This document shows positions 6,886 through 24,871 of a DNA stretch of 64,000 nt, piece after piece (within the stretch, counting starts at the first letter, position 1; each line of letters opens with the position of its first letter). The DNA comes from Candidatus Nomurabacteria bacterium (lineage in GTDB: Bacteria; Patescibacteriota; Minisyncoccia; Phycocordibacterales; UBA918), in contig CP060229.1 of assembly GCA_023898585.1 (NCBI GenBank), positions 790,587 through 854,586 of the forward strand. Direction: 5' to 3'. The notes beneath the pieces were generated by a model that saw only the letters and a program-made list of their open reading frames with translations, did not search any database and had not been told where the DNA came from. The position numbers and the translations under genes are program-made.

Positions 6886-6928
6886 AACAACAACATATTT
6901 ATATTAAAAATTATTCAGATTTTACTTT

Positions 6929-8983
6929 ATGAACTCAACTGAAAATTCAAACAAGAATAGAAACTACTCGAACAAAGAAGGAAGCAATAGTCGTCACCGG
7001 CACGGCAGATATCCAAGACGGGTATCGACAACAAGCAGTAACACAACCAGTCAGGCTAGGTCAAACGCCACATATCGTCGTGGTCAGCCAACAGACCAAA
7101 CGGATGGTAAACCGAGAGCCGGTGTAACGGGTGGGAGAAGTCGTGGCTATCACAAAAATAGACTAAATCCGGGAACAAATCCAGCGCGAAAGAACGGGAG
7201 GAGCAGACGTAATAGTCAGTACCGCAGGCGTTCCAATACCGCTCCAGTCCTTACTCACAGACTCGATATCTCCGATAACAAATCACCGGTCATCCCGGAA
7301 GTTCTTGACGAAGATATCGTTCGGATTATTCCCGTTTCTGGAGTGGAAGAGATTGGTAGGAATATGAACATAATTGAGACTAAGGATGACATTATTGTTA
7401 TTGACGCTGGTTTTCAGTTTGTCAGCGAGGAAAGCAACGCACCGGGAATAAATTATATATTGCCCAACACGCAGTATTTAGAGGAAAGAAAAGACAAAAT
7501 TCGAGCCTTGGTTGTAACTCACGGTCACCTCGATCATATTGGAGGAATTCCGTTCATTATGGAAAGAATTGGCAATCCCCCCATTTATACTCAATATTTG
7601 ACGTCATTAATGATTTTGAAGCGACAAGAGGAATTCCCGCACATGGATCCTATCAATATGAACGTTATAAAAGAAGGAGAAAGTTTTACGGTGGGAAAAA
7701 CCAAAATTAAAACTTTCCCCGTCACTCATTCCATTCCTGATGCTATGGGTCTCGAGATCGAAACAAAACACGGCGACATTGTCGTAACCGGCGACATAAA
7801 ACTTATCCATGAAGACGGCGAGGTAGTGGTTGAAGAGAGGTCTTCCTGGGAAAAAGTCGGTGAAAACAAAAATTTAGCTCTTCTTTGTGATTCAACCAAT
7901 GCCGACAGACAAGGTTTTTCCGCTTCCGAAGGGTTGGTGTTCGATACTTTGGAAAGCATTATCAAGAACACAAAAGGACGTCTGATAATCGGTACTTTTG
8001 CGTCGCAATTCGACCGCTTAACGAATGTTATTAGGGTCTGTGAAGAGATGAACAAAAAGGTTGTGATGGAAGGTAGGAGTATAAAAACCAATATCGAAAT
8101 TGCAATTCAGGCCAAGTTAATGGAAGTTAAACCGACCACTTTTATCAACGCCGGTGATATTCCTGACTACCCTGCTGACAAAATAGTGATCCTTTCAACC
8201 GGAGCTCAGGGTGAGCAATTTGCTGCGCTTATGCGTATGGCCACCGATAAACACAAGTTTATCACTTTAACAGAGAGAGACACTATCGTACTTTCGTCGT
8301 CTGTTATTCCAGGAAATGAAATTGCTGTTCAAAAACTCAAGGACAATATTTACCGAAAGAATGTCAAAGTTATCAATTATCAAGGTTCTCACGTTCACTC
8401 ATCGGGACATGGTAATGCCGGTGAGCTAGTTTGGGTACATCAGGCGGTTAAACCTAAATTCCTCATCCCTGTCCATGGTCACCACTACCACCTTAAGAAT
8501 CACATGTGGGCTGCTGTTGAAAACGGTTTTCCTAGAGAAAATGTCGCTGTCCCTGACAATGGAACAATCATTGATATAAAAAATGGTGAAGAAATGAAAG
8601 TTCTCCCCATGAAAATTCCCACCGAACTCATGATGGTGGATGGTTTTACGGTCGGAACTAAGCAGGAGGTGGTACTAAGAGATCGACTCAGTCTCGCTGA
8701 GGACGGCATGTTTGTAATTATTGCCACCGTTAACAACAAGAACGGCAAACTAAGAAAATCTCCGGATATTATTTCCAGGGGTTTTGTCTACTTGCGAGAA
8801 AACCAACAACTATTGTCTGAGGCACGCGTTTTGATTAAGAAGACAGTGGAAAAACAGACAGAGCACATGCATCCATTGGATTTGGAATTAGTTAAAGATG
8901 AATTAGCGGATGTAGTGAGTGGATTCCTGCTCCAAAAAACACAAAAAAATCCGATGGTGATTCCCGTGTTGATTGGGATATAA
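6929..8983 (+). CDS. rnj: ribonuclease J (metallo-beta-lactamase/beta-CASP) with ~120-aa Arg/Ser-rich N-terminal extension
   Basis: VVTHGHLDHIGGIPF (the HxHxDH motif), a beta-CASP region and an RNase J C-terminal domain. Residues 1-120 are R/S/N-rich low complexity. Confidence 0.85.
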   Translation: MNSTENSNKNRNYSNKEGSNSRHRHGRYPRRVSTTSSNTTSQARSNATYRRGQPTDQTDGKPRAGVTGGRSRGYHKNRLNPGTNPARKNGRSRRNSQYRRRSNTAPVLTHRLDISDNKSPVIPEVLDEDIVRIIPVSGVEEIGRNMNIIETKDDIIVIDAGFQFVSEESNAPGINYILPNTQYLEERKDKIRALVVTHGHLDHIGGIPFIMERIGNPPIYTQYLTSLMILKRQEEFPHMDPINMNVIKEGESFTVGKTKIKTFPVTHSIPDAMGLEIETKHGDIVVTGDIKLIHEDGEVVVEERSSWEKVGENKNLALLCDSTNADRQGFSASEGLVFDTLESIIKNTKGRLIIGTFASQFDRLTNVIRVCEEMNKKVVMEGRSIKTNIEIAIQAKLMEVKPTTFINAGDIPDYPADKIVILSTGAQGEQFAALMRMATDKHKFITLTERDTIVLSSSVIPGNEIAVQKLKDNIYRKNVKVINYQGSHVHSSGHGNAGELVWVHQAVKPKFLIPVHGHHYHLKNHMWAAVENGFPRENVAVPDNGTIIDIKNGEEMKVLPMKIPTELMMVDGFTVGTKQEVVLRDRLSLAEDGMFVIIATVNNKNGKLRKSPDIISRGFVYLRENQQLLSEARVLIKKTVEKQTEHMHPLDLELVKDELADVVSGFLLQKTQKNPMVIPVLIGI

Positions 8984-9061
8984 GCCTGAACACCGCTTGC
9001 ATACACTTAACAGTTTCATCACTGCTCAAATATTTCTTCTTCTGATTATTGACAGTCTACC

Positions 9062-9538
9062 TTGAACATCGTATTGTTACGCGGTTCTTTTAGCTGTGGA
9101 TTAGGAGGTGGTACATTGATCAAATTACTTTTTATTGCTCCCTTCATCGCGACGTTTTACTCGATTTGGCCGGTTACGATCACCAAGACAGGAATGAGCG
9201 CTGTATGGGGCGGTTTTCTCGCGATGTTCGGAACCACTATCGTTATTCTCGGGTACGGGCTCACTAAAGGCAGTTTTATTACCGTGCCTACCAAAACGAG
9301 TATAGTTGTAATGCTGGTTGCTGGTGCAATTAACGGTGTGGGTATTATTCTGCACTCCAACATCATGACAGACCCATCTGTGAGAAAAGTCATTTTTCAG
9401 CCCTCATTGGCGGTGGGGATGGTGATTACTTCAGCGGTAGTTGCCTGGCTAATCCTTCGGGAACCTATCAATATCAAACAAGTGTTATGGTTCTTGGGTG
9501 CCATGGTATGCATTGTTATGGCAACGATTCAGAAGTGA
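9062..9538 (+). CDS. small multi-pass membrane protein, possibly single EamA/DMT-like domain
   Basis: 4-5 predicted TM helices. The weak EamA-like character is only my impression, and the true start is uncertain. Confidence 0.35.
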   Translation: MNIVLLRGSFSCGLGGGTLIKLLFIAPFIATFYSIWPVTITKTGMSAVWGGFLAMFGTTIVILGYGLTKGSFITVPTKTSIVVMLVAGAINGVGIILHSNIMTDPSVRKVIFQPSLAVGMVITSAVVAWLILREPINIKQVLWFLGAMVCIVMATIQK

Positions 9539-9574
9539 TCATACACTTAATCTTAGAAGTAAAGGGTCGAATCC

Positions 9575-9613
9575 GGTCACCAAGCGAAAGTCGCTTCGGT
9601 GACTTTTGCTTTT
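9575..9613 (+). terminator. rho-independent terminator
   Basis: GGTCACCAAGCGAAAGTCGCTTCGGTGAC forms a stem-loop that is followed by TTTTGCTTTT. Confidence 0.55.
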
Positions 9614-9690
9614 ATATCGAGAAAAAAATAACAAACCTAATTGTGAAAAACATAATTTCAATTTAATGAAATCATGTATACTGTTAAGTA

Positions 9691-11574
9691 ATGTCACGTT
9701 CTTCCACTACGCTAAAGCGAGAAGCTACTTTGAGCAAGACCGCTAAAAAAGTTAAGACGGTTAAGAAAGTCGCTAAAAAAGCCGTCCGAAAAAAGCCTGT
9801 AAAAAGTAAGAAAAATGAATCCATTAAGGCTATCAGTATCAAACAAATTGCCAGCCAAATCAAACCAACGGTCACTATAAAGCGCAATCCACTCGGTCAC
9901 CTTCTGATGGAAAAGATGTTTCGTGAGGCTGGCTTTCGCGGGGGTATATCCACCGATAAAAAACTTCTCGATGCCTACAGCACAGATGAAAGTATTTTTT
10001 CAGTCAGACCGCAAGTTGTGGTTCAGCCTAAAAATCGGGGAGATGTTGAAATAGCCACCAAGGTAATCGCCGAGCAAACCAAGCGCTTCACTTCCCTTTC
10101 GTTAACGCCAAGAGCAGCTGGAACCGGTTTGGGCGGTGGCTCGCTCACCGACTCGGTGGTCATAGATGTGTGTGCTCATCTCAACAAAATAGGAGAGGTG
10201 GTTGAAAAGAAAGGAAAAATAACTTTCACGTGCGAGCCCGGAGCGATGTGGCGTGATGTAGAAAAAAAATTAAAGAAGCATAATGCCTATCTCCCGCCTT
10301 ACCCTGCTTCAAAAGATATATGCAGTGTTGGAGGTTCGGTCGCGAACAACGCCGCCGGCCCCGATTCTCTTCGCTACGGACATTGTGCTGATTGGGTTGA
10401 ATCAATTGATGTTGTGCTTCATGATGGTCACACCTACACGATCAAACCTCTCACCCTTCGCGAGTACAAAATATTGATAAAGCAAGATCATGGACACTCT
10501 AGAATAGCGAAAGAAATTTTCGACTTGATAAGTAAAAATGAAAAAGAAATCAAGAAGAATAAACCAGAAACAGCAAAAAACACTGCCGGTTACCCACTTT
10601 GGAGCGTGATGCCGGAAGGGGTGGCTAAATTTAAAAAAGGTATTGGGACGTTTGATCTGACAAAATTGATCTCGGGAAGTCAAGGAACGATTGGAATCAT
10701 CACCAGTTTAACTATGCGTGCCGAGCCAATACCAAGTGATACCACTCTCATCGCTGTGTCAATTTTTGATCTCGAAAATGTTGCTGATAGCATTGTTAAA
10801 TTACTCAAATACAATCCATTAAACGTAGAAATATTCGACGCTCTCACCTTCGATCTCGCTCTTCGTAATCCCGGTTTTTTCAAAAATCGCATCAGTAAAT
10901 CAATTTACTATCGGGTAATGTTTTCACTATACACAACCTACCACGTACGGTTTCGGCGTAAGATTCCGGAATTTACGATACTGGTGACAGTAGACAAAGA
11001 AACTGCCAGTGAACACCAACCGGAAGTCATTGCAAAAGAAATAAGCGGGCAGAAGATTAAAGCACGAGTAGTAAAGAGTTCTATTGAATCTGAAATGTAC
11101 TGGCAAGTACGGCGTGGTAGTTATACTCTTTCAAAAATGCAAGATCCTACTAAGCGACCGGCTGCATTCCTTGAAGATATGGCGGTTCCGCCTGAAAACC
11201 TATCTAAGTTTTTTGTCCAAATTAAAAGACTGCTGAGAGAATTTAATGTGACAGCTGCCATTCATGGTCATGGAGGAAATGGTCATCTTCACTTCTATCC
11301 CCTTCTAGATTTTACCAACAAGACTACTCCTGTTCTGGTAGAAAAGATGGCGGATAAATTTTTTGAGACAGCTGTAAAGTTCAAGGGTAATATTTGTGGT
11401 GAGCACAATGACGGTATTATACGAACTCCTCACTTGAGCAAGATTTTCTCAAAGAAAATGCTAGACATCTTCAAACAAGCAGAGCATATATTTGATCCCG
11501 ATGACATTTTCAACCCCGGGAAAAAAGTAAATCCCCGTTTCGACATCAAGGAGACAATGCGGACTAATAATTAG
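9691..11574 (+). CDS. FAD-linked oxidase (GlcD/D-lactate dehydrogenase-like) with Lys-rich N-terminal tail
   Basis: FAD-binding PCMH-type region (VVVQPKNRGDVE...RAAGTGLGGGSL) plus an FAD-oxidase C-terminal domain. The first ~60 aa are K-rich and histone H1-like in composition. Confidence 0.75.
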   Translation: MSRSSTTLKREATLSKTAKKVKTVKKVAKKAVRKKPVKSKKNESIKAISIKQIASQIKPTVTIKRNPLGHLLMEKMFREAGFRGGISTDKKLLDAYSTDESIFSVRPQVVVQPKNRGDVEIATKVIAEQTKRFTSLSLTPRAAGTGLGGGSLTDSVVIDVCAHLNKIGEVVEKKGKITFTCEPGAMWRDVEKKLKKHNAYLPPYPASKDICSVGGSVANNAAGPDSLRYGHCADWVESIDVVLHDGHTYTIKPLTLREYKILIKQDHGHSRIAKEIFDLISKNEKEIKKNKPETAKNTAGYPLWSVMPEGVAKFKKGIGTFDLTKLISGSQGTIGIITSLTMRAEPIPSDTTLIAVSIFDLENVADSIVKLLKYNPLNVEIFDALTFDLALRNPGFFKNRISKSIYYRVMFSLYTTYHVRFRRKIPEFTILVTVDKETASEHQPEVIAKEISGQKIKARVVKSSIESEMYWQVRRGSYTLSKMQDPTKRPAAFLEDMAVPPENLSKFFVQIKRLLREFNVTAAIHGHGGNGHLHFYPLLDFTNKTTPVLVEKMADKFFETAVKFKGNICGEHNDGIIRTPHLSKIFSKKMLDIFKQAEHIFDPDDIFNPGKKVNPRFDIKETMRTNN

Positions 11575-11598
11575 TATCGCCACATAATAGAGAGGTAC

Positions 11599-11627
11599 AA
11601 GCGCGCCGTAAAGGCGTCGCTTTTGTA
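11599..11627 (+). terminator. putative terminator hairpin
   Basis: AGCGCGCC-GTAAA-GGCGTCGCT forms a stem-loop that is followed by TTTTGT. Confidence 0.35.
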
Positions 11628-11630
11628 ATT

Positions 11631-11790
11631 ATACCATCCCCAATTAACCATCCAACAAACAGGTCATAATTTCGGCTACAAAACGTAGCTTCGTCCTTGT
11701 CTTATCTCGATAAAACTCGGACTCCAGCTACATTTTTCGCTCTAAATTCTGCCCTGTTTTAATGTTGGAGCGCTAATTGGGGATGGTATT
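11631..11790. repeat. 160-bp element bounded by perfect 16-bp inverted repeat ATACCATCCCCAATTA (MITE-like or long structured hairpin)
   Basis: Exact 16/16 inverted match at 11631-11646 and 11775-11790. An internal small hairpin GCTACaaaacGTAGC is also present. Confidence 0.4.
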
Positions 11791-12109
11791 AATCGCCCCC
11801 GTCTCCACCTCCGTCACCGCTTGCACCAGCACTATCAAGCCAGTCAAAGCCTGTGTCGTCATCTTTTTCCTTTACTGATCGAACAGACATATCTTCATCT
11901 GCAGACCATGTCCCGCCGGAAGTTGGAGACTGCTCTTTTTTACTTTTCCTCCTAAAAAATCTAGAGATAATGTTCATGTTTATATATGACACAGGATATC
12001 ACATTTATAATTTTATCAGTCCACTAGACCCTTTCCACTGATACTTTTTTCTGTTATAAATAAAGCCGAATTTGAGATTTTGTATTCCATGAATTCATTT
12101 CGTTCATAT

Positions 12110-12181
12110 GGCCCTATCGTCTAACGGCTAGGACAGCAGGTTCTCATCCTGCAAATCGGGGTTCGATTCCCCGTAGGGTCA
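12110..12181 (+). tRNA. tRNA-Glu (anticodon CTC)
   Basis: The cloverleaf folds by hand: a 7-bp acceptor stem (GGCCCTA/TAGGGTC), a D arm, anticodon stem GCAGG/CCTGC with loop TTCTCAT, and T arm CGGGG-TTCGATT-CCCCG. No CCA is encoded. Confidence 0.8.
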
Positions 12182-13698
12182 CAAAACGAGACTTCGTCTC
12201 TAGATAACGAGCGCGGCGAAGCCGCGCGAGCAGAAGCCAGAGGAAACATAGCCCTACGCTCCGCCACCAAACCAAAGGGTGACGGGACGGAAAAGCGCGC
12301 GGATTTGTCACGAACCAATGGGTTCGTTCCAACTTTTTTGACGAATGAAGCAATTTCAGGGAAATTGCTGGATGAGGATAAAAAGGTGGCTTGTTTCGTA
12401 TCTAAAATCCACTCCCGCAGGGGTTCGACCCAATTATTTCCTTGGTGTGCAAAATCTTTCTTTTTCTCCTTCAAAGCAAGGGTGGCACGCATGATCTCGT
12501 CTTTTTTCTTGGTGTATATCTCTCGCGGTACGTCGCCATCAAGATATGCACCGACTAACTTATCCATGAGTGCCTCGCTGGCTTTGATACTATCGGAAAG
12601 ATTTTGGACACCACTTTGAGATGAGTGTTTTTCTTCTTGCTCCCACTCAGCAACCCTGGTGAGCATGTAATCGGTGTACGCATCGCAAAGCGAAATTGTT
12701 TGAAGCTGTTCCTTTAATTGGTCGGCGAGAACGTCCTCGCGCACGTATCCTTGGGAGCATGTTCCTTTCTTTTTAGTACAACGATAATATCTATACTTTC
12801 CTCCGCATTTGCCAGTAGCCCACTGTGCAGTAAACATGCTCCCACACTCTCCGCACGCAAAAATGCCCACAAACGGAAAGTCATGCTTGGCCTTCCGTTT
12901 GCGAGGACGTTCTCTTGCCGACAATACTTTTTGCACAGCTTCAAACAATTTCGGGGAAATAATTGGCGCAAAGCTTCCGTCAAACCATTCGTCATGATGA
13001 CAAACAAATCCGAGATAGGCGCGGTTCGTCAACATGCGTTTTATGGAAGCTTTGCCAAGTGGCGTTCCTTTGCCAGTCGTTACACCGTGAAGCGCCAGAA
13101 AGTCGGCGAGCGAAACCAATCCATGCTCACCTTTGGCGTATTCCTCAAATGCTTTCACAATAATCTTGCTATGCACTGGATGCGGTTCGATATTCCTCGT
13201 ACGCGGATTATTCACATAGCCAAAGGGAGCTTTGGTGAGCCACTCGCCTCGCCGAACTTTCTGGCGCATCCCTCGCTTCACATTCTGCGTTAGATTGTCT
13301 GAATAATATTTAGATTGACCGAACGCCACTTGCAACATAAAGAGCCCTTGCGGGGTGGGTTCAAACCAAAATGTTGGAAAGCGCAAAGACGCAATTTTCT
13401 CAGTATCAACTGCATACACAATACGACCACCATCTATACTATTGCGTGCCAGTCTATCGGGATGCCACGCTAAAATACCCACACCATCCAAAGAGTCAAT
13501 TTGCTCCATCATCTTACTAAATACTGGACGTCCGGGTGTCTTTGCACTTTTTGACTCTTGAAACTCCGCTAGGATTTCAAGATTTTCTTTACGCGCAAAC
13601 TCTCTCATTTCAAAAAGCTGCGATTCGATAGACATAACTTGCTTATCGTCATCTTCTGTCGATTTGCGAGCGTATAGAAAATATTTTGGTTTGAACAT
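12121..13698 (-). CDS. large serine recombinase (resolvase/invertase catalytic domain + recombinase domain + zinc ribbon)
   Basis: Start adjusted to MFKPKYFLYARKSTEDD...SIESQ (the catalytic Ser motif). A Cys cluster is present (CGECG...CTKKKGTC). The ORF C-terminus reads through IR1-L into the tRNA, so the true stop is uncertain. Confidence 0.8.
   Translation of the reverse strand: MFKPKYFLYARKSTEDDDKQVMSIESQLFEMREFARKENLEILAEFQESKSAKTPGRPVFSKMMEQIDSLDGVGILAWHPDRLARNSIDGGRIVYAVDTEKIASLRFPTFWFEPTPQGLFMLQVAFGQSKYYSDNLTQNVKRGMRQKVRRGEWLTKAPFGYVNNPRTRNIEPHPVHSKIIVKAFEEYAKGEHGLVSLADFLALHGVTTGKGTPLGKASIKRMLTNRAYLGFVCHHDEWFDGSFAPIISPKLFEAVQKVLSARERPRKRKAKHDFPFVGIFACGECGSMFTAQWATGKCGGKYRYYRCTKKKGTCSQGYVREDVLADQLKEQLQTISLCDAYTDYMLTRVAEWEQEEKHSSQSGVQNLSDSIKASEALMDKLVGAYLDGDVPREIYTKKKDEIMRATLALKEKKKDFAHQGNNWVEPLREWILDTKQATFLSSSSNFPEIASFVKKVGTNPLVRDKSARFSVPSPFGLVAERRAMFPLASARAASPRSLSRDEVSFCDPTGNRTPICRMRTCCPSR
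12179..12302. repeat. IR1-L: 124-bp GC-rich inverted repeat (left copy), starts inside the tRNA 3' end
   Basis: Its reverse complement equals 13732-13855 with a single mismatch. It contains the hairpin GCGCGGCGAAGCCGCGC. Confidence 0.9.
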
Positions 13699-13731
13699 AC
13701 AAATGATTTTAGACACGAAACAAGGACAAAA

Positions 13732-13855
13732 CCGCGTGCTTTTCCGTCCCGTCACCCTTTGGTTTGGTGGCGGAGCGTAGGGCTATGTTTCCTCTGGCTT
13801 CTGCTCGCGCGGCTTCGCCGCGCTCGTTATCTAGAGACGAAGTCTCGTTTTGTGA
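13732..13855. repeat. IR1-R: right copy of the 124-bp inverted repeat
   Basis: Reverse-complement match to 12179-12302 with one mismatch. Confidence 0.9.
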
Positions 13856-14074
13856 AGAAATACTAACCCTTGCGCGAACTTACTTTGAACAGAACTAGCA
13901 ACGCGCGGAGCGCGTGGTGGCTTTGTACTTCTGCGTACGCATTCGGGTGCGTGGTGATACGCCTCGGGGCGCGCTCGTACCTCGCACGCAGCAACCCTAA
14001 AAATTTCCTTACCTTTCTAAAAGCGGAAGGGGGTGCAGGGGGAAGCCGCCAAAAAGAAGAAAGGAAATTTTTGG
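13849..14074. repeat. IR2-L: 226-bp GC-rich inverted repeat (left copy), overlaps IR1-R by the 7-bp core TTTGTGA
   Basis: Its reverse complement equals 16999-17224. ORFs 13870..14178 and 16832..17203 share an identical 66-aa N-terminus because of this repeat. Confidence 0.9.
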
Positions 14075-14158
14075 GTGTTGCGAGTCAATGGCACACAGGT
14101 TCAGTTTACCACTATATCGGAAATATGAATATTGCTTTTCCAGATACATACTTCTATA

Positions 14159-14380
14159 ATGAAAAGGTTGCTTCATAGCAAAGAGTACAGAGATTTTACA
14201 GAGCGTCTTAAGACTGCTCGACTCGAATCTGGTCTCACGCAGGTACAAGTTGCTAAAAAACTCAAGCGCCCACAGTCTTACGTTTCTAATATTGAATCAG
14301 GGCAGCAAAGGGTTGACGTTGTGGAGTTACATAAATTTGCGAAGCTGTATAATAAGAATATTACTTGGTTTATAAACTAA
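14159..14380 (+). CDS. XRE-family helix-turn-helix transcriptional regulator
   Basis: ERLKTARLESGLTQVQVAKKL...SYVSNIESGQ is a classic HTH_3 pattern. Start adjusted to MKRLL. Confidence 0.6.
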   Translation: MKRLLHSKEYRDFTERLKTARLESGLTQVQVAKKLKRPQSYVSNIESGQQRVDVVELHKFAKLYNKNITWFIN

Positions 14381-14392
14381 AATTTTATAGGT

Positions 14393-16774
14393 ATGAAAAA
14401 CTTTAACTTTGGAATGGGGGGGGTAGCAGTAGTATTCTTAACATTTCTTTTCATACCAACAACTTTTGCATTTGCGGCTGATTATTATATGAGGGCAGAC
14501 GGGTCAGCAGCAAATAAAGCAGCGGCCACTTCATGTGATGATGCTTCAACAGCAATGAGTGTCACTACTCACAACTCAGAAACTTTCTCTGCTGGTGACA
14601 CTATCTACATTTGCGGTAATGGAGGGACTTTTACAACTGAGTTAATTAACCCTTCCTCAGGTACTTCTGGGTCACCCATTTCGTATATTGGAACTAGTAC
14701 TCCAACTTGGAGCATGACTTCACGAAATTGGTATACTAACGGTAAAGATCATCTAGTCATCGACGGTATTACGCTTAATAACACGTCATCAGGTTATTCG
14801 ATTCAGATGACAACAACGGATAACTCGACTTTGAGGAATATTACGTCTACTGCTCCGAGCGGTATTTACGTACAAACTTGTGTTGCGCCGGTTCTTGAAA
14901 ACATTACTTCAACAGCAAGTACATTCGACGGTATTCGAGTCGCTGGAACCAGCGCTACTATCACTAATCCCACGATTATTTCAGCAGGGAGGTACGGCAT
15001 TTATCTAGAATCTATAAACGGAGTGACCATCACAGGAGGATCAATTTCAGACACGACCTTTGAAGGCATCAGAGTTACCAATGCGAACGATTCAGTAGTC
15101 ACGATAGATGGAACGACTTTGGAAGACGTAGGGTTAAATGGAGGTGCAACAAGTGCGGGTATCTACTACAGTGGGGCAGGTGTCACTGGGGTTGATCTAA
15201 CGATAGATGACATAACAATAACTGGCGCTCTCGGCTTAGGAGGTATCTACCTTACTACAGCTCCATTTGAGACGAACAGAGCAAGTATCTCAAACGTAAC
15301 TATTACGGAATCTGCTCACGGGTTACGAGCCACCAGCACTAATAATATTGATATTTCCGACTCTACTTTTTCTAATAACACCTCTGATGGTATTTTCTTT
15401 GAAGGAACAAGTAGTGGAATGGTGATTTCTGACGTCACGGTTGGAGATAACGGTAGAGACGGTATTTCATTTGGTGATGGAGTAACAAATGGAACCGTTA
15501 AATACAGTGAGATATATGGGAATGGTCAGACAGATACTGTCTCAAACGGAGACGGCATAACTTCCCATACAGGTTCAACAGGATTCACTTTCCACAACAA
15601 TCTCATTTGGGGTAATAGAAACGCTGGTTTTGCTCTGGTTTCAGACTCAGCGGCAGATATCTATAACAACACTGTTTATTTCAACGGCGACTCGACAAGT
15701 GTCAATATGGGTGTTCGGGGAGGATTCTATAACTCAGGAACAGGTGGAGTTTTTGATGTAAGAAACAATATCTTCTTCGGCAATTATCCTTATGAAGTTC
15801 AAGTAGAACAGAACTCAGCCTACCTAGCGTCCACATTCGATTACAACCAATACTACCACGTCGGAAATAATACTGTTGAAGCGAACTTCGCGGACATAGA
15901 TGCAGGAGCGATAAGTTGGGCGACGTATAGTGCAAGTAACGAAAGCAACTCAAATTATGGAGATCCTCAATTATCAAGTCCCACCACAAGTTTCGCTTTA
16001 CTCTCTTCTTCCCCTGCAATCAACGGCGGTGTTGATGTCGGTCTAACAGATGATTATGTTAAAAATTTAATTATTGGATCCCCTGACATAGGAGCATACG
16101 AGTATCAATGGATAGAACCTACTTCTGCTTTTACATCATCGGCTTCTAATCTTGCTGTAATATTCACTGACACTTCAAGTGATTCTGATGGTTCCATAGC
16201 TTCATGGAGTTGGAATTTCGGGGACGGTAACACCTCTGCTTCTCAGAATCCATCTCATACATATACTACTGCTGGTTCCTACGATGCAGCTCTCACTGTT
16301 ACTGATAATCACGGGGCAACTGACACATCAACAAGTACAATCACTGTATCTGAGGGCTCAAGTTCAAGCGGCGGGTCTTCTGGAACTCGTACAAGTCGTC
16401 AAACTACTCAAGAACCTACCGAACGTGCGGCACTATTGGCTCGCATATCAGAACTACAAACACTTCTTAAAGAGCTTAAACTAAGACAAACGGGTGCAAG
16501 TTCATCGTGTACTTTTATCCGCAACCTTCAACTCCACAGTGTCGGAAGTGATGTTCTCTGTTTGCAACAGTACTTAAATAGCAATGGCTTCATAGTTTCA
16601 AGTACTGGTGCTGGATCAATAGGACTTGAGACTTCCTACTTTGGAAATGCAACCCTAACTGCCCTAATTCGCTTTCAGAACGCCCATGTAGCCGAAATTT
16701 TGACCCCTGTTGGACTTACAAGTGGAACTGGCTACTTTGGACCAAGCACACGAGCATACATAAACGCCAATTAA
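14393..16774 (+). CDS. secreted surface protein: signal peptide + right-handed parallel beta-helix repeats + PKD domain + C-terminal peptidoglycan-binding (PG_binding_1-like) domain
   Basis: The N-terminus has a hydrophobic core with AFA/AD cleavage. Repetitive ITxTxxxGIxV beta-helix rungs are present, a PKD signature (WSWNFGDGNTS...HTY..AGSYDAALTVTDNHG), and the C-terminus carries a PG-binding motif (LQQYLNSNGF...ALIRFQ). Confidence 0.7.
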   Translation: MKNFNFGMGGVAVVFLTFLFIPTTFAFAADYYMRADGSAANKAAATSCDDASTAMSVTTHNSETFSAGDTIYICGNGGTFTTELINPSSGTSGSPISYIGTSTPTWSMTSRNWYTNGKDHLVIDGITLNNTSSGYSIQMTTTDNSTLRNITSTAPSGIYVQTCVAPVLENITSTASTFDGIRVAGTSATITNPTIISAGRYGIYLESINGVTITGGSISDTTFEGIRVTNANDSVVTIDGTTLEDVGLNGGATSAGIYYSGAGVTGVDLTIDDITITGALGLGGIYLTTAPFETNRASISNVTITESAHGLRATSTNNIDISDSTFSNNTSDGIFFEGTSSGMVISDVTVGDNGRDGISFGDGVTNGTVKYSEIYGNGQTDTVSNGDGITSHTGSTGFTFHNNLIWGNRNAGFALVSDSAADIYNNTVYFNGDSTSVNMGVRGGFYNSGTGGVFDVRNNIFFGNYPYEVQVEQNSAYLASTFDYNQYYHVGNNTVEANFADIDAGAISWATYSASNESNSNYGDPQLSSPTTSFALLSSSPAINGGVDVGLTDDYVKNLIIGSPDIGAYEYQWIEPTSAFTSSASNLAVIFTDTSSDSDGSIASWSWNFGDGNTSASQNPSHTYTTAGSYDAALTVTDNHGATDTSTSTITVSEGSSSSGGSSGTRTSRQTTQEPTERAALLARISELQTLLKELKLRQTGASSSCTFIRNLQLHSVGSDVLCLQQYLNSNGFIVSSTGAGSIGLETSYFGNATLTALIRFQNAHVAEILTPVGLTSGTGYFGPSTRAYINAN

Positions 16775-16998
16775 AAATTGAGCGAACACCCACCTGCACC
16801 GAGCAGGCGGCGCGAGCGAATGCGAGTGTGCCTATGCGAGATATTGGTTGGGTTTGTGAGCGGTGGTTGATAGTACCCAGCATACTCCAACGCGCGAAGC
16901 GCCTCGGGCGTCACAAGACCGTAAAAAAGCGACATGAAAATCTCTCAAGTAGATGGAGATTTGAATGAGCTTTTTGAAAGGTCGTAGTGACGAGCAAA

Positions 16999-17224
16999 CC
17001 AAAAATTTCCTTTCTTCTTTTTGGCGGCTTCCCCCTGCACCCCCTTCCGCTTTTAGAAAGGTAAGGAAATTTTTAGGGTTGCTGCGTGCGAGGTACGAGC
17101 GCGCCCCGAGGCGTATCACCACGCACCCGAATGCGTACGCAGAAGTACAAAGCCACCACGCGCTCCGCGCGTTGCTAGTTCTGTTCAAAGTAAGTTCGCG
17201 CAAGGGTTAGTATTTCTTCACAAA
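16999..17224. repeat. IR2-R: right copy of the 226-bp inverted repeat
   Basis: Reverse complement of 13849-14074. It ends with the core TCACAAA at 17218-17224. Confidence 0.9.
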
Positions 17225-18887
17225 TAGCAGACATACGGTCGTCAAAGGCATCAAATCCCTTTTTGACCTTATATACCAACGTATCTTGAGCGATAAAAAG
17301 TTCTGAAAAAATAACTTTTACAATCCTCTCTTTTTCGTGTGGATTGGCAAAATCGTAAACAGGCACAACGTTTTTTAGGAGTTCTGAAAGTGTCACCACA
17401 TCTTTCATCAATTCACGCATCGCTACGTCAGACACTTCTTCATCTGTCTTGAGTTGCTTCAAGTCAGTTTCAAGTTTCTGTTCTTCATCCATAAACGTTT
17501 CAGGTGTATAGACACCGCTCTGTAGCAGAGACAGTCGATTAGAACGTAGGTATGCCATATTCTCACGTATCTTCTTCTTTTTACGCTCAACCACGTTGAG
17601 TGACTTGTGACGCTTTTCTTCGAGTAACGAAATGTCAGTACTAGCACGAGCTTCAAGCTGTGCAAGCTCATTGTCTGTGAAATACAAACTTTCTACTAGA
17701 CCTTTTATTTCACCAGCAAGGTAATCAAAGTTACAGTTTTTCATCGTGTTGGTACAACCTTTCAAACAACGAGCATTGAAATACAAAATACCTTTCTTGG
17801 TGTATGGCGTATAGACACGTTCACAATGGGCACAGCGAACGACACCACGCAAAGGATGGTCTAGTTTCTCTGTGTAGTGAACGCTCACTTTTTTCTTATT
17901 TAGGTTAGCTTGGACTTGATTGAAGACCTCATCACTTACCAAAGCTTCGTGACTGGTGCTTTCAATATATATTCCATCGGGACCTTTAGTGCGTCCAGTA
18001 TAAAACCTACTCGTCAAAATACGACTGATGTGATTTTCAGTTACGGGTCGAGATGTTTTCTCTATTACTTCAACTTCCTCACTATCATCAGCAAGTATTT
18101 CAGCTTTAGAACGACGTCTACGCATTGGGACCGTTGTAAAACCTTGTGCAACTGCGTGACGAGCAAGGTCAGCTAAACTCCAATCGCCAGTAGCATACAA
18201 CTCGAACATTTCTTTGATTATAGGAGCACGTACAGGGTCAAATGGTTTATGGTCGATATTACCCTCATTCAAATAACCAATCGGTGCTCGATAAGTACAC
18301 TTACCTTTCTGACGGCTATTCTTGGTACTCAACGTAACTTTCTCACTGGTTACTCGTGAGTGATGTTGCGAGAACATACTGTCGATATCCATATGCAACT
18401 CACCAGCACTACTTTTGTCGTAGTTAGCGTATACAAAACGAACATCAATACCATTACGCATCAGCTTACGAATGATAGTGTCATCTCCTTTATTTCGACT
18501 GATGCGGTCCCAACAAAGGCAGACGATACCTTTGAAGTATCCTCTGCTCAAGTGTTGGAGTAGTTGCTGAAACTTTGGTCGGTCAATACGATACTGGACC
18601 ATCCCGTTAGAGATATACAGCTCATCATCTTCTTTGAAACCAGAATGTTTTTCAGATACAACTCCGTTGGTACAAAAGCCAGTCAGGGTCACAGGTGCAA
18701 GCTTGATTTTGTTACGCTTTGCAAAATCTGTATTTTCTGTACGTTGGTATGAAATTGAGTTTTTCTGGTTATCTGCTTCGTCAGTACTTTTGCGATTATA
18801 AACCAGATAGCAGTCACGATATTTACCGTTTACTATATCTTTCAATATGTCTTTTTCTGACTGTATTTTACTCATTTTCATTTTCAT
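17175..18887 (-). CDS. large serine recombinase (second, divergent paralogue)
   Basis: YNRKSTDEADNQKNSISYQ catalytic motif, a recombinase domain and a zinc ribbon (CAHCERVYT...CLKGC). Its 3' end lies inside IR2-R. Confidence 0.8.
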   Translation of the reverse strand: MKMKMSKIQSEKDILKDIVNGKYRDCYLVYNRKSTDEADNQKNSISYQRTENTDFAKRNKIKLAPVTLTGFCTNGVVSEKHSGFKEDDELYISNGMVQYRIDRPKFQQLLQHLSRGYFKGIVCLCWDRISRNKGDDTIIRKLMRNGIDVRFVYANYDKSSAGELHMDIDSMFSQHHSRVTSEKVTLSTKNSRQKGKCTYRAPIGYLNEGNIDHKPFDPVRAPIIKEMFELYATGDWSLADLARHAVAQGFTTVPMRRRRSKAEILADDSEEVEVIEKTSRPVTENHISRILTSRFYTGRTKGPDGIYIESTSHEALVSDEVFNQVQANLNKKKVSVHYTEKLDHPLRGVVRCAHCERVYTPYTKKGILYFNARCLKGCTNTMKNCNFDYLAGEIKGLVESLYFTDNELAQLEARASTDISLLEEKRHKSLNVVERKKKKIRENMAYLRSNRLSLLQSGVYTPETFMDEEQKLETDLKQLKTDEEVSDVAMRELMKDVVTLSELLKNVVPVYDFANPHEKERIVKVIFSELFIAQDTLVYKVKKGFDAFDDRMSAICEEILTLARTYFEQN

Positions 18888-19044
18888 TTATCTTCACAAT
18901 CTTACCGTCTACCATAGCGTATCCTTCACACTTCATCCGTAGATAGATTGTTTTCAGCACACTACCAAGCTCTTCCATCGCATCAAGTGTGTCGTTAGAC
19001 AGAGTAGCGTCTAACTCCGATGATGAGGAATGTAGTACCTTCAT
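18888..19044 (-). CDS. 52-aa ORF translationally coupled between the Rep-like gene and recombinase 2 (possible directionality-factor-like protein)
   Basis: ATG overlaps the TAA of the upstream gene (TAATG), and its stop overlaps the recombinase start. Translation: MKVLHSSSSELDATLSNDTLDAMEELGSVLKTIYLRMKCEGYAMVDGKIVKINENENE. The function is a guess. Confidence 0.2.
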
Positions 19045-20231
19045 TATAACAAGAGGTTGTGCAAATACTGTCTAGTAATCAGTTCGTACGTTTCAAGCTG
19101 ACCATCAACAAACGCTACTCCATTTGAGTACGGTAGCTCTTTAGTTAGTTCTGAAGCTGACTGCATTTTCTTGTTCAGCCGTTCTGGGTGTTTTGGGTTC
19201 CAATGATTGAATATCAGACGCTTGAACTCTTTTGCTCCGTGGTCTCGAATGATACAAGTCAGACCGTACGCTATCAGAGCGTGGTTCATACTGTGTGCCC
19301 CACCGTTAGCTTTTGCATTCTCAACGATGTGTTGCAGTAGCTTGTAACTATCCGTTGGACCAATGAGAGCAAGTTGGTTTTCGGGTCGACCAACCAACTC
19401 ACGCCAAGATTGCAACAACACCTGCTTACTCAATTCTGGTGAGAACACATCACGAAACGTTATGTACGTTTTAGGTTTCTGACCAAGCGTAGCATTGATG
19501 ATACGCTCTACTGTTTGGGTCTTTTTGATGCGATATTCATAACGAAATATCTCTTTGTTGTGTAAACCGTACTCGTCAATGATGGTACGCTCATAATCCA
19601 TCTGACCTTTGTCCTTACGTTTATTCTTGGTTCGTACAGCATCGGTGACTTTGTCATAGAATACTCGTTCAACAACACCAGAATATAGATGTAGTATCTG
19701 ACCACCATTTTTTGTCTCTTTAGTAGTCACATCGACCGTTCGATTGATGTCTACCCGCTGTAGGTCAGCTAACACGTCTTGCAATAGAATGTGTTTTGGT
19801 AAAAATATGTTCTTACAAAAATGGACCGCTGACACACGAGCATCCATTAGGTTCTTCTTTTCAATCTGAATACCAGCTTGTGACAATGTGTGTTGCAGTA
19901 CTGCGATTGTTTTAGCAAAATCAGCATCGCACACCTCCTGCACGCTATTGCCGTACAGTAACTTTGGTACTGAAAATGTGATAATCATCACGTACTTGAC
20001 CTGTTTGTTTGGTTTATCGAGCGTTTCAAGCACATCCACTTGTGGGATGTATTTACCCTGTGGTGGGGCTTGTAAATGAAACCGACGTAGGTAGTTACGA
20101 ACTGGTGGTTGCTTTTGTTCATTTGGTGTCAGGTCCTTATATTCACGTTTATTTATTTCAGGCAAAAACAAATCGTGTTTTTGGATTTTGAACTTGTGAG
20201 GACCGTATAGTTTGAGAATAACTGTATCCAT
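19044..20231 (-). CDS. Rep_trans-like rolling-circle replication initiator (putative)
   Basis: 395 aa. The motif ERVFYDK resembles the catalytic-Tyr motif R-[IV]-Y-[ND]-K of pT181 RepC-type initiators, and is followed by RYEYRIKK (compare RVEIELKR). This was recognised from memory only. Confidence 0.45.
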   Translation of the reverse strand: MDTVILKLYGPHKFKIQKHDLFLPEINKREYKDLTPNEQKQPPVRNYLRRFHLQAPPQGKYIPQVDVLETLDKPNKQVKYVMIITFSVPKLLYGNSVQEVCDADFAKTIAVLQHTLSQAGIQIEKKNLMDARVSAVHFCKNIFLPKHILLQDVLADLQRVDINRTVDVTTKETKNGGQILHLYSGVVERVFYDKVTDAVRTKNKRKDKGQMDYERTIIDEYGLHNKEIFRYEYRIKKTQTVERIINATLGQKPKTYITFRDVFSPELSKQVLLQSWRELVGRPENQLALIGPTDSYKLLQHIVENAKANGGAHSMNHALIAYGLTCIIRDHGAKEFKRLIFNHWNPKHPERLNKKMQSASELTKELPYSNGVAFVDGQLETYELITRQYLHNLLL

Positions 20232-20280
20232 AGGTGTATTTGTTGTTGTAGGTGTTTTTCAAGGAAACCTCTGTGTCTGT

Positions 20281-20541
20281 CTAATCAGAGTAGAGTTTGC
20301 TCTTGAGGGCTTTCAAACTGTCAAAGTACGACCGAGCTTTGACACGGAGTTCATCTGCATAAAACTTATTGGCAGATTGCTCAATGCCTTTCTTGTATTC
20401 AAAAACAAATAAGGCACGGCGGTTGGTGCGGTCTAGTGTCTTGAGCTTGTATCCTGATGTCAAAAGTGACGCTGATACACCCAAGTCATAGGTGGTGAAG
20501 ACGTTAGATTGTTCTTCTGTAGTTTCTTTCTTCATATTCAT
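20281..20541 (-). CDS. hypothetical protein
   Basis: 86 aa, in an operon between the 630-aa and Rep-like genes. No recognisable motif. Confidence 0.4.
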   Translation of the reverse strand: MNMKKETTEEQSNVFTTYDLGVSASLLTSGYKLKTLDRTNRRALFVFEYKKGIEQSANKFYADELRVKARSYFDSLKALKSKLYSD

Positions 20542-20658
20542 TTGCTAGTTGCTAATCGAGACGAGGTGTCTCTTATAGGCATCTGGCAAAAAGTCACCCA
20601 AATACAAAAAGACCCGATACTGTCGGGTCAGGAGGGGTCTGGTTTTTTATTCGATTTG

Positions 20659-22551
20659 TTACCGTGCTAGGTCACTGAAGATGTCGTCAACTTCTTCCAA
20701 AAGTGGGTCTTGTAGAGTTTTTGTAGGTTGGTGGTTACTATCTTTATTGTAAAAAATATCCATTTTCAAGTCGTAGCCAGTTTGAGGTGTGTACTCTCTA
20801 AACGGGTCCGTGTCCAACGAAAAGTACGCCATCAGACGTTTAGATAGTCGGTGTTTATGTTGCTTGTAGTTATCGCTAGCATTACCATCACTAGCTTTCA
20901 TAGAACCGTTACTTTCAGCAAGTGCTTTCAAGAATGCCCACTGTAGATTTGGCGGTTGTCCATTCTTTCTATTGTCTGCAAAGCCCATATCAGCATAACC
21001 AGTGTTATGAACATTACCAGCAAGTCGTATTTCAACAGTTTCATCATCTAAAAATCTCATCGTGATATTTTCCCAACGAGTGCCAGCTGGGATAGTTTTA
21101 GGATACGTGGATTGTTTTTTTGCTTTCTTTTGTTCACTTTTAGTGTCCAGATTTTCGTGAATAAGATGAAGTTTTTGGATATTCTCCGTCGGCTCTGGCT
21201 CATCGGTAGCAGTTCGTTTGTTAGCAATCAGTGAGTTGACGGCTTCAAGTGCGATTTCATCATCAGTCATATCTGATGTTGCTTCAGCTTTGCTAATCAG
21301 TTTTGTGATATCACTATGGGCTTTATACAGACGAGGACGGATAGCTTCCCAACTCAACTCTGCACGCTCACCATCAAGGTCTGTGTGGACCAGTGACTTC
21401 CAGTAGTGTTCTGCTGAATAGAAATCATCAAACGGACGATAAAACTCAATCTTGTGCCGTTTGAGTGGTATTGCATTTATCAGTAACTGGATTTTGTCAG
21501 CTAGTTTTACATAAGCATCATTCAGTTCTGGGTCTGGTTTGGTAGTGTCTACACAGAACAGTTCGATGATATTCATATACGCCTGATGATACTCACGTAT
21601 TTTCATCAATCGACCTTTATTCTTGATGATAACTGGGTCATCCTCTTTCAAGCTATCAACTAAACTCTGGATGATTTCCGCTTCTGTCTGCTTTGGTTTG
21701 ATTGGTCGATTGATTTCTTTGGGTATTGGTTCGATGGTGTATTTACCGTCAGTTTCTATCAATGTCAGCTTGTCATACGCTAAAAATCGGTCGATTTTCT
21801 CTTTGAACGTATCAAGGTTTTCTAGGTACGGCTCGTAGTTGATAGGTTGCAATAGAGCCGAGAGGATAGTTTCAATATGTTTATCTGCATTGATGTCTTT
21901 TTGTCGCATTGTCTGCAAAACGTCATTGAAATCAAAGAATGTGTAGTCCTGACTTCTGTCCAGATAATCCTGTACCACTGAAAGAGGATAAATATATTTT
22001 ATCTCCTTGAGGATTGGTTCAACTATCCGTATGACTTCAAAACGCTGTAGTGGTACTTCTCCTGCAATCAAGCTGATTGCTTTGGAGCTGATTGAGCACT
22101 TGTATACGTCTGGCAAATCATCAGCTTTTGGTGGGTCAAATACCCCTACTTCATTTTTTGGTACGGGACTACCTTTTGATACTTTTGCTGGTTTCGGTGC
22201 TTCAGCTTCACTCATTGGGACCAGCTTGGCAGTTTTTTCGGTGTGCTGGATTTCAATATCGTCGTACGACAGTATTTCATTTAGCCGTTGAATAAACGCA
22301 ATACGGCGTTCTGGGTCAGGAAAAGAGAGCGGATGACAAAACTCCGCTATTGCTTCTGGGATGTCATTTTCTTTATTCTCAAACTTGGAAAAGGCATCAA
22401 GAGTAATACGCCACTTGGCATACAAACTCTCGTCAGTTTCTACACCAATATCCTTGAAAACGGTCGTGATTTCGTTAGTGGTGAAGTATTCTCCAATGGT
22501 GCGAGCTATCTGCTCTTTGACACGGCTACTGATTTTCATATTCATTCTCAT
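20659..22551 (-). CDS. hypothetical protein, 630 aa (mobile-element/defence-island cargo)
   Basis: Long ORF of ordinary composition and no recognisable catalytic motif. First gene of the minus-strand operon that ends at recombinase 2. Confidence 0.5.
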   Translation of the reverse strand: MRMNMKISSRVKEQIARTIGEYFTTNEITTVFKDIGVETDESLYAKWRITLDAFSKFENKENDIPEAIAEFCHPLSFPDPERRIAFIQRLNEILSYDDIEIQHTEKTAKLVPMSEAEAPKPAKVSKGSPVPKNEVGVFDPPKADDLPDVYKCSISSKAISLIAGEVPLQRFEVIRIVEPILKEIKYIYPLSVVQDYLDRSQDYTFFDFNDVLQTMRQKDINADKHIETILSALLQPINYEPYLENLDTFKEKIDRFLAYDKLTLIETDGKYTIEPIPKEINRPIKPKQTEAEIIQSLVDSLKEDDPVIIKNKGRLMKIREYHQAYMNIIELFCVDTTKPDPELNDAYVKLADKIQLLINAIPLKRHKIEFYRPFDDFYSAEHYWKSLVHTDLDGERAELSWEAIRPRLYKAHSDITKLISKAEATSDMTDDEIALEAVNSLIANKRTATDEPEPTENIQKLHLIHENLDTKSEQKKAKKQSTYPKTIPAGTRWENITMRFLDDETVEIRLAGNVHNTGYADMGFADNRKNGQPPNLQWAFLKALAESNGSMKASDGNASDNYKQHKHRLSKRLMAYFSLDTDPFREYTPQTGYDLKMDIFYNKDSNHQPTKTLQDPLLEEVDDIFSDLAR

Positions 22552-22605
22552 TGCACAACGTCAACATTGAGCAGACAAAACTGTTGTGTATAATGATGTT
22601 ACCAA

Positions 22606-22824
22606 ATGTTAGGTAAAATACCAATGAGCGAAAACCCTAAAAAAGACGTAAATATGCCTGAACTGCTCACTCTTTCAGAAGCGTGTGAGCTATTGAAAGT
22701 GCATCCCAATACATTACGTCAGTGGGACAAAAAAGGTGTGTTACCTGCCATTAGGATTGGCACAAAGCGAATACGTAGGTATCGCAAAGAAGACATCATC
22801 AAGATGTTGGATGAAAAAATATGA
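22606..22824 (+). CDS. excisionase-family/MerR-like helix-turn-helix DNA-binding protein
   Basis: LLTLSEACELLKVHPNTLRQWDKKGVLPAIRIG...RRYRKEDI matches the HTH_17/excisionase pattern. It is divergent from the 630-aa operon and upstream of the Type III mod gene. Confidence 0.55.
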   Translation: MLGKIPMSENPKKDVNMPELLTLSEACELLKVHPNTLRQWDKKGVLPAIRIGTKRIRRYRKEDIIKMLDEKI

Positions 22825-23034
22825 TAGATATCTAACACTACAATCCGCCTAACCTCACAATGTGAGCACGGCATAAAATACCCGACCAAGATAGTAACCT
22901 CCTCATCAGGTTGTTGCACTCTTGGTCGGGTCGTAGCTCGAAAGGGCTACGGGCAGTTGGAAACAGCTGTCGCAGTCAACTCTGGTGAGGAGTTTTCTGT
23001 TTTATAAATCCATTCATAAAATCCCGACCAAGGT

Positions 23035-24870: not shown

Positions 24871-24871
24871 T

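Follow-up and report, generated by a model that had tools for sequence, protein, structure and literature searches.

The 64,000-nucleotide (nt) stretch analysed here (contig CP060229.1 of the Candidatus Nomurabacteria bacterium assembly GCA_023898585.1, positions 790,587 to 854,586; hereafter the window) contains, at the very end of a tRNA-Glu gene, a 5-kb element (window positions 12179-17224) that consists of two abutting segments. Segment A holds the gene of a large serine recombinase, LSR1, between the arms of a first inverted repeat (IR1-L and IR1-R), and segment B holds two cargo genes between the arms of a second one (IR2-L and IR2-R). The gene of another large serine recombinase, LSR2, has its 3' end inside the outermost arm. 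In what follows, T denotes the chromosomal half-site, a and b the two kinds of arm, a' and b' their inverted copies, and c the flank. The features of the element and its borders are these:

12110-12182, plus strand: tRNA-Glu(CTC) gene (ARAGORN, Rfam), the chromosomal target and half-site T; its final 3-4 nt lie within core 1
12179-12185, plus strand: core 1, TCACAAA, at the attL-like junction T/a
12179-12309: IR1-L, arm a; its minus strand codes the variable LSR1 linker (...KSARFS...SLSRDEVSFC)
12121-13698, minus strand: gene of LSR1, a large serine recombinase of 525 aa, from the ATG at 13698 to the stop at 12121 (Pfam, translation, family alignment, homologues)
13725-13855: IR1-R, arm a' (arm a in inverted form), which precedes the LSR1 start codon
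13849-13855, plus strand: core 2, TTTGTGA, at the internal, inverted, intact attP-like junction a'/b, common to IR1-R and IR2-L
13849-14074: IR2-L, arm b; positions 13854-13898 (plus strand) code the conserved native tail EEILTLARTYFEQN and a stop, in frame with arm a'
14159-14380, plus strand: cargo gene 1, a 73-aa XRE-type helix-turn-helix (HTH) protein (Pfam; the exact protein occurs on 5 contigs)
14393-16774, plus strand: cargo gene 2, a 793-aa Beta_helix/NosD/PKD/PG_binding protein with a hydrophobic N-terminus (Pfam)
16999-17224: IR2-R, arm b', which provides the final 16 LSR2 codons
17218-17224, plus strand: core 3, TCACAAA, at the attR-like junction b'/c, in direct orientation with core 1
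17175-18887, minus strand: gene of LSR2, 570 aa, the recombinase of a neighbouring island (E2) that forms flank c; Resolvase PF00239 (E 3e-14) and Recombinase PF07508

IR1 and IR2 are the sole long inverted repeats within the window. A preliminary description of this DNA had given IR1 as 124 bp with one mismatch; the pair is real, but it measures 131 nt with the 7-bp core counted and has two mismatches (12297 and 12303), both near its inner end. The 226-nt arms of IR2 are 100% identical, exactly as described, and the heptamers that had been noticed at 12179, 13849 and 17218 do alternate in orientation, the first of them in the 3' end of tRNA-Glu, which is placed at 12181/12182. With 8 and 13 occurrences of the heptamer on the two strands of the window, one match is ordinary; all three repeat boundaries bearing it is not. 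Direct copies of this short core bound the element (12179 and 17218), and the same logic is found in other loci. Joining the ends of the element (b'-core-a) gives exactly the internal a'-core'-b unit. The integrated layout is tRNA, core-a-(LSR1)-a'-core'-b-(cargo)-b'-core, flank, and the repeats are the two halves of an attachment region b'-core-a, one copy of which is split by integration whereas the other sits intact and inverted in the middle of the element. Because this intact inverted copy separates them, LSR1 and the cargo each lie between long, near-identical inverted repeats.

An independent metagenome-assembled genome (MAG) at NCBI, GCA_020428745.1, matches the window at 99.9-100% over two contigs (5434-13571 and 13851-21377). 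Its assembly breaks at or near IR1-R, and it holds both IR2 arms, which can be told apart by a TA/CG difference, the CG being on the XRE-side arm. The arms are indeed richer in GC (58% and 52%) than the window (42%), although the genome, which had been called AT-rich, is only moderately so. The strong hairpins that had been attributed to the arms were not recovered, since their folding is no more stable than that of shuffled sequences (z -0.2 to -1.5). No Rfam family was found in the arms, the only matches in the window being the tRNA and a LOOT RNA, and a search for conserved secondary structure in arm a (RNAalifold on 16 arms) gave 3 pairs from an alignment that was too shifted, although GC hairpins seem to recur when the arms are inspected by eye. 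The sole feature returned by the promoter and terminator scans is a GAGAC-GAA-GTCTC hairpin with a T-run, just inside each outer end of IR1. An extra 20-nt inverted repeat has one copy directly before the LSR1 start codon (13705-13724) and the other 80 nt inside IR1-L (12390-12409), where the conserved motif WILDTKQA is coded; as the first is complementary to these codons, the upstream arm resembles an inverted partial copy of the LSR1 3' end, and the LSR1 mRNA could form pairs between its 5' and 3' parts.

Pfam places both proteins among the large serine recombinases, as had been proposed, with 570 aa for LSR2 as stated and 525 aa instead of 526 for LSR1 as read here. LSR1 carries Resolvase PF00239 (E 1e-21), Recombinase PF07508 and Zn_ribbon_recom PF13408 domains, that is, the catalytic domain with its nucleophilic Ser, the recombinase domain and the zinc ribbon of a large serine recombinase; R11, K12 and S13 are invariant among 27 homologues. 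Its closest solved structure is that of SPbeta SprA, and it shares 22% identity with LSR2, in which Pfam detected no zinc ribbon. Looked up as exact sequences, neither LSR1 nor the 793-aa surface protein was on record.

The 3' end of the LSR1 gene is the key to the element. The conserved body of the protein, about 465 aa (12310-13698), stops at K465, up to which conservation in the family alignment is very high; it is lower in the part coded by arm a. The final 63 codons cross IR1-L and then run antisense to the tRNA, giving the tail DPTGNRTPICRMRTCCPSR followed by a stop. Read outward, arm a codes ...SLSRDEVSFC, and it is from that Cys codon that LSR1 in the window enters the antisense tRNA. 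At the internal junction the same frame passes from arm a' into arm b and ends as EEILTLARTYFEQN, identical to the C-terminus that LSR2 takes from arm b'. The crossover core thus lies inside the 3' end of the LSR1 frame, so that the tail after the core Cys codon is set by whichever DNA adjoins the core, either antisense tRNA or arm b with its code for a conserved native tail (xEILxFARTxFE). An AlphaFold model of the b-tailed homologue P0044, of modest quality (mean predicted local distance difference test score, pLDDT, 65), has a disordered linker (residues 466-495), helical last 20 residues and, with modest confidence, long helices at 339-418, after the zinc ribbon and in the position of the coiled coil.

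The family of LSR1 is very large: a scan of one representative genome per species confirmed at least 580 relatives, and homologous proteins number in the thousands. We fetched 80 contig stretches with LSR1 relatives (loci) for self-comparison and listed the 120 best homologous proteins, which are 67-88% identical to LSR1; the few with a named source come from Patescibacteria. Loci and contigs are cited below by numbers beginning with L, and proteins by numbers beginning with P. The conserved LSR1 body is intact in 80 of 80 loci, across which 70 IR1-type pairs of at least 100 nt were found, their arms mostly of about 115-140 bp. A second pair of 153-433 nt adjoins IR1 in 19 cases where enough upstream sequence is present, and IR1 and IR2 overlap by 3-13 bp in 19 loci besides the window. 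Within a genome the median identity of the arms is 99.1% (IR1) and 99.7% (IR2), against about 60% between genomes. Arms were found nowhere but around recombinase and cargo, so the repeats are not copies of a multi-copy family unrelated to the recombinases, the outcome that would have told against the first description. That description had not recognised the layout as a described element, and a full-text literature search found no account of it either; it is undescribed as far as searched.

Antisense tRNA or transfer-messenger RNA (tmRNA) adjoins or overlaps the tRNA-side arm in 59 of 78 IR1 pairs. The targets are tRNA-Glu (24), Ser (15), Ala (5), Arg, Gly and Leu (3 each) and tmRNA (3), with single cases of Lys, Ile and one unusual call, which shows that the family inserts at the final bases of tRNA and tmRNA genes. 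The flank beyond the other arm is conserved as well (GCGCAAAGGTTAnTA...), coding [DE]x[IL][ILV]xFARTxFE and then a stop despite differing DNA. This motif was found in at least 42 of 61 loci, by a pattern that misses variants such as the window's own LAR, and the native tail is, judging by this conservation, real coding sequence. The internal site keeps an intact core with conserved flanking motifs in all loci. Among the 120 homologues listed, the b tail forms the C-terminus of 12, and antisense-tRNA sequence that of the great majority of the others. Within single clusters at 90% identity the linkers are identical and the tails diverge exactly from the core Cys codon, into several tRNA-antisense tails, the b tail (P0179, P0183, P0184 and P0189 as compared with P0024 and P0178) and others; recombinases more than 90% identical are likewise joined to different tRNA sequences and other partners. 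In related loci the recombinase and arm a can be 92-97% identical and the b side 28-67%, and similarity breaks at the core, which by these comparisons is the crossover point.

No LSR1-type relative was found in viral contigs, and the exact arm sequences were absent from them too, and these elements look like small islands, not prophages. An origin from a phage or plasmid was rejected, the only similarity to deposited phages being the tRNA. A separate class of elements with segment A only was also considered and rejected, as the distal flank of such loci still has the b motif and the partner arm probably lies beyond the fetched sequence. Many of the fetched contigs end at the upstream arm, which indicates that assemblies break there; L095 and L096, with b-tailed recombinases, begin inside or just after an arm, and their left partner is outside the contig.

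Two observations concern single members of the family. At L051:9800-9850, arm b is lost a few bases past the core, the flank reading ...ccgcagattaga; the b side shares only the first few core-adjacent bases with the relatives L041 and L046, and L051 looks like a decayed element. Recombinase and cargo are also arrayed in tandem, as three modules in L034:900-14400 and two in L024:7500-17883. The L034 modules are parted by identical 177-180-bp spacers, each of which starts with a 15-nt copy of the 3' part of tRNA-Ser and holds a terminator-like hairpin.

Orientations were compared between samples, not within one read set. L088 and L089, from two samples, share 9,972 bp of chromosome flank at 99.99% identity, including tRNA-Glu(CTC) and the proximal arm; beyond it the 1,679-bp segment A, arms included, has the opposite orientation (98.7% identity), and colinearity resumes on the b side. 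The recombinase of L088 is co-directional with the tRNA and b-tailed, and that of L089 faces the tRNA. For segment B, the scaffold L093 runs from the LSR2 3' end through an arm into the cargo of this element at its XRE end, an orientation opposite to that in the window and in the MAG. The L093 arm has CG at the marker position, as does the XRE-side arm of the MAG; the marker therefore moved with the cargo, which places the exchange within the outer 109 bp that include the core. In a related tandem (LSR2 type 75% and LSR1 type 80% identical), whose cargo comprises SMODS/S_4TM, DpnII restriction-modification and HTH proteins, this cargo has one orientation in L106, L108 and L110 and the reverse one in L107. 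Six arm markers remained on the LSR2 side in L107, which points to exchange in the inner 133 bp or to later conversion, and not to crossover at the core. Both segments thus occur in both orientations among near-identical sequences and, between samples, between the same flanks, as in an inverton. The suggestion of invertible segments, made from the sequence alone, is in this respect borne out (L088/L089, L093, L107/L106).

Metagenomic repeats invite the suspicion that repeats and flips are artefacts of assembly, the more so as many contigs end at arms and short-read assemblers can mis-join repeats. The same layout, however, recurs in about 70 assemblies that are independent of each other and come from different assemblers, and the MAG reproduces IR2 with its markers. 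L088 is a k141 contig whose arm, at 130 nt, is shorter than the 141-nt words that could span it, and an artefact could not produce the conservation of the tail reading frame. We consider artefact highly improbable, and judge in the same way a transposon with long terminal inverted repeats, the other form in which the preliminary description had cast the element: its supposed termini are halves of an attachment region with no target-site duplication flanking them, and conservative site-specific recombination accounts better than transposition for the direct cores (12179 and 17218) and for specific insertion sites at tRNA 3' ends.

Taken together, we think that 12179-17224 is probably an integrated small mobile island of an LSR1-driven Patescibacteria family, with a spare inverted attachment region aboard. 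The three sites around the core (T/a, b'/a in inverted orientation, and b'/c) are those expected if a b'-core-a circle had recombined with T-core-c, the second, inverted b'-core-a held inside the element completing the pattern. LSR1 would act on all three cores. Excision and integration would proceed through cores 1 and 3, and inversion through core 2 and either of its neighbours. The flip of segment A would then toggle LSR1 between a common state, antisense to the tRNA with a tRNA-derived tail (as in the window), and a rarer one, co-directional with the tRNA with the native tail. As the tRNA-facing state strongly predominates (about 10% b tails), a stable low-activity state with a rarer active one would fit. 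With its spare inverted attachment region the integrated element could rebuild the full-length LSR1 gene, and this rebuilding may switch the form or activity of the recombinase and hence the stability of the island. The flips may be made or aided by homologous recombination of the host between the long arms, a process that probably also keeps the arms identical. More tentatively, we propose that the LSR1 tail, written by the DNA joined at the core, sets activity or direction without a separate directionality factor, that inversion resurrects a self-truncated integrase, and that the cargo can be exchanged as a cassette rather than lost.

Several observations weigh against this interpretation of the island. 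Arms of 115-434 bp far exceed what a serine recombinase needs as a site, and their near-identity points to homologous recombination or gene conversion. Recombination of an attP-like with an attL- or attR-like site is not canonical for large serine recombinases, and the unmoved markers of L107 do not speak for a crossover at the core. L093 is a short-read scaffold whose path leads through a 226-bp repeat, where a mis-join may have occurred. Promoter and terminator scans gave fewer matches than shuffled sequence and detected no outside promoter by which orientation would matter. Finally, no circular contig was found that would represent a free form, and an empty tRNA-Glu site, sought through the DUF2779 neighbour, was not recovered, all longer contigs carrying E2; the starts of three contigs, 12-37 nt to the left of the core, do not suit a branch from an empty site.

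Some of these points favour a division of labour in which LSR1 only integrates and excises, and the flips are made by host RecA-type recombination between the arms, either as a by-product or selected for reconnecting the tail. Arms that are 99-100% identical within a genome but diverge to about 60% between genomes fit gene conversion or homologous exchange, the best explanation for arms so long and so alike; a crossover at the core needs no such arms, and in L107 the exchange lies in the inner, identical 133 bp. The CG marker that moved with the cargo of the present element, on the other hand, puts the exchange in the outer part with the core, and it is at the core that similarity between elements breaks, the internal site being maintained with its flanking motifs throughout. 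We regard an LSR1 confined to integration and excision as possible but rather doubtful.

The cargo bears on two further explanations. In the window, Pfam agrees with the description of an XRE regulator and of a 793-aa beta-helix/PKD/PG-binding protein. A poly-G tract in the signal-peptide region of the latter (14408-14415) has 8 G in the window. In the NCBI MAG it has 9 G, which puts a frameshift into the gene, annotated there with a product of 355 aa; slipped-strand phase variation or a sequencing error could account for the difference. In the 18 loci with both IR2 arms, 1.1-7.7 kb of unrelated accessory genes are enclosed. They include ABC transporter, GrpB and PG-binding proteins, FAD/ALO oxidases and an aromatic amino-acid lyase, type I and II restriction-modification systems, ThiF/DUF6791, SocA-Panacea, PLD and GDPD proteins, a LexA-methylase fusion and a cytochrome d1 protein, with CBASS-type genes in other members, and sometimes the cargo is a single metabolic gene. 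Variation of a surface protein, which had been put forward as a purpose of the inversion, is hence not a general one, as the cargo of other members (restriction-modification, CBASS-type, transporters, oxidases) is unrelated. A switch in which the flip of segment B joins the surface-protein operon to an outside promoter, or separates it from one, would suit the two orientations of this segment and a secreted-looking surface protein with a variable poly-G tract. It appears quite improbable in view of cargos that differ wholly between members and often bring their own regulator, the lack of a detected outside promoter, and conservation that lies in recombinase, arms and tail and not in the cargo. 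The comparison with shufflons does not hold either: the recombinase is a serine and not a tyrosine enzyme (Rci), there are two segments only, and no alternative 3' ends of a cargo gene are present.

The yeast 2-micron plasmid is a free plasmid in which Flp, a tyrosine recombinase, acts on FRT sites within 599-bp inverted repeats, for copy amplification. Like it, the present element has long identical inverted repeats, each with a recombination site, and halves that flip, with the recombinase in one of them; unlike it, the element is chromosomal, has one repeat copy split by integration, and uses a serine recombinase. The layout might accordingly serve a free circle, in which two inverted attachment copies let the halves flip for copy-number amplification, a possibility that gains from the way in which the joined island ends reproduce the internal unit. 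We nonetheless think this improbable, although less so than a switch of the surface-protein operon, since no replication gene was recognised in the cargos (down to single genes), no circular contig was seen, no relatives were found in viral contigs, and nearly all copies are chromosomal at tRNA genes.

LSR2, which had been connected with the segment B system, was rejected as its partner. Its 3' end does lie inside IR2-R, as first described, with the last 16 codons there, but nothing in the 80 LSR1-type loci corresponds to it beyond weak similarity to LSR1-type genes. It belongs to a neighbouring, older island of 14.4 kb, E2, whose features are:

17225-31633: island E2, about 14.4 kb, with LSR2, a DUF5659 protein, a LOOT RNA, type III restriction-modification genes and a diversity-generating retroelement
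31548-31634, minus strand: remnant of an LSR2-type native tail (DPLAWLSELYNSREYIKSNVMELQELIG and a stop), marking the right end of E2
31630-31719, plus strand: putative native tRNA-Glu 3' end (GGGTCACCA, encoded CCA) and trailer, with a terminator-like hairpin at 31680-31719

Members of the LSR2 family (59-94% identity) likewise have a frame that crosses the core, and most end in antisense tRNA. P0234, 94% identical to LSR2, ends AIC and then DPTENRTPISWMRTMCPSR, entering the tRNA directly with no 5-kb element between. Four LSR2 homologues, the window's included, have the b tail, and about 25 of 120 end in DPxAWLSEL..., probably the native tail of the LSR2 family. After the tail remnant the plus strand reads GGGTCACCAATTAG and then forms a terminator-like hairpin, so that we infer the native tRNA-Glu end, with CCA and trailer, in the 31630 region. 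LSR2 homologues that mostly end in antisense tRNA, together with the tail remnant and putative native tRNA end at 31548-31719, identify 17225-31633 as an older LSR2 island. The 5-kb element is inserted into the tRNA-side junction of E2, and 12183-31633 is all inserted DNA.

A few LSR1-type proteins (P0177, P0187, P0199 and P0204) carry the DPxAWLSEL-type tail, and this sharing of the LSR2 tail suggests that the two families use each other's junctions. The LSR2 family extends beyond Patescibacteria, to a 5.3-Mb contig (P0249) and a protein named by NCBI as Candidatus Sedimenticola (P0346). Within E2, the LOOT RNA (RF03000, 80.9 bits, 22846-22971) lies just upstream of the type III methylase gene. 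The retroelement (27478-30191) has a reverse transcriptase gene (27478-28548, minus strand), a bAvd-like gene and 111-nt repeats (28913-29023 and 29413-29523), in which 10 of 10 differences are T-to-other on the plus strand, or A-to-N on the coding strand; the variable copy is at the 3' end of a 267-aa open reading frame (29388-30191). Elsewhere in the window, a 27-nt inverted repeat (89% match, 105-nt spacer, 11631-11789) lies between an FAD-oxidase gene and tRNA-Glu, and four Logan contigs end inside its spacer, three from different runs at 11675 and a fourth at 11683. A family of 30-nt repeats has four copies at 40093-42472 (in the 38-43 kb region), two of them identical and 41 nt apart; they lie near genes whose annotation in related contigs is Y1 (IS200/IS605-type) transposase, beside a SocA-Panacea/HTH gene.

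Known islands and phages with serine recombinases include SCCmec (Ccr), Tn4451 (TnpX), phiC31, Bxb1, A118 and SPbeta (SprA), and composite SCC elements form tandem arrays. The elements described here resemble them in site-specific insertion at a conserved gene 3' end, in accessory cargo and in tandem arrays at one site. They differ in their target at tRNA and tmRNA 3' ends, in the internal inverted attachment copy, in a frame that crosses the core, and in cargos that can be a single gene and in which no directionality factor is evident. Recombination that alters the C-terminus or expression of a protein, upon integration or excision, is familiar from mycobacteriophage immunity of the BPs type and from the joint promoter of Tn4451. 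Here too the site is placed so that recombination changes an element-encoded protein, but that protein is the recombinase, for which inversion provides a third state. The DNA invertases Hin, Gin, Cin and Pin are small enzymes of the serine type that end in an HTH; they act at 26-bp sites with an enhancer to which Fis binds, and their switches have no link to integration. PinQ is an example of such an invertase switch, with the serine recombinase gene within or beside the flipping segment (PMC12529663). LSR1 has in common with the Hin type that its gene lies within a segment flipping between inverted repeats; an enzyme of more than 460 aa, arms of 115-430 bp, three sites and two adjacent invertible segments in a mobile island set it apart from that class.

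The nearest parallel is archaeal. In the 'suicidal' tyrosine integrases of SSV type, the attachment site lies in the integrase's own gene, the target is a tRNA gene and the product is altered by integration, and recombinases with an attachment site in their own gene were stated to be exclusive to archaea (PMC8371274). Both LSR1 and LSR2, and both their families, have the attachment site inside the integrase frame, together with a tRNA target. Unlike the SSV type, they are bacterial serine recombinases in which only the last 15 or so residues are exchanged and the gene is not split into inactive halves, and the spare inverted site would allow the full-length frame to be rebuilt by inversion while integrated. 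As for the target, serine integrases have been described as 'not known for targeting tRNA genes', with 4.9% usage as compared with 44.5% for tyrosine integrases (PMC7192596).

The LSR1 family contradicts both the statement that serine integrases are not known to target tRNA genes (PMC7192596) and the archaeal exclusivity of in-gene attachment sites (PMC8371274). Its layout of three sites and two flips, with a C-terminus rewritten by recombination, is a new arrangement among serine integrases. In practice, elements of this family break short-read Patescibacteria assemblies at tRNA genes and give rise to chimeric recombinase calls with tRNA-antisense tails. Patescibacteria have tiny genomes and their mobile DNA is poorly known; there, the cargo of the LSR1 family comprises genes for defence, surface and metabolic functions. 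Should the tail govern activity or direction, it would be a factor-free switch, of interest for the serine integrases used in genome engineering. If the integrase does resurrect itself by inversion, serine integrases would have a control logic new to them, and the self-disrupting integrases of archaea a first counterpart in bacteria.

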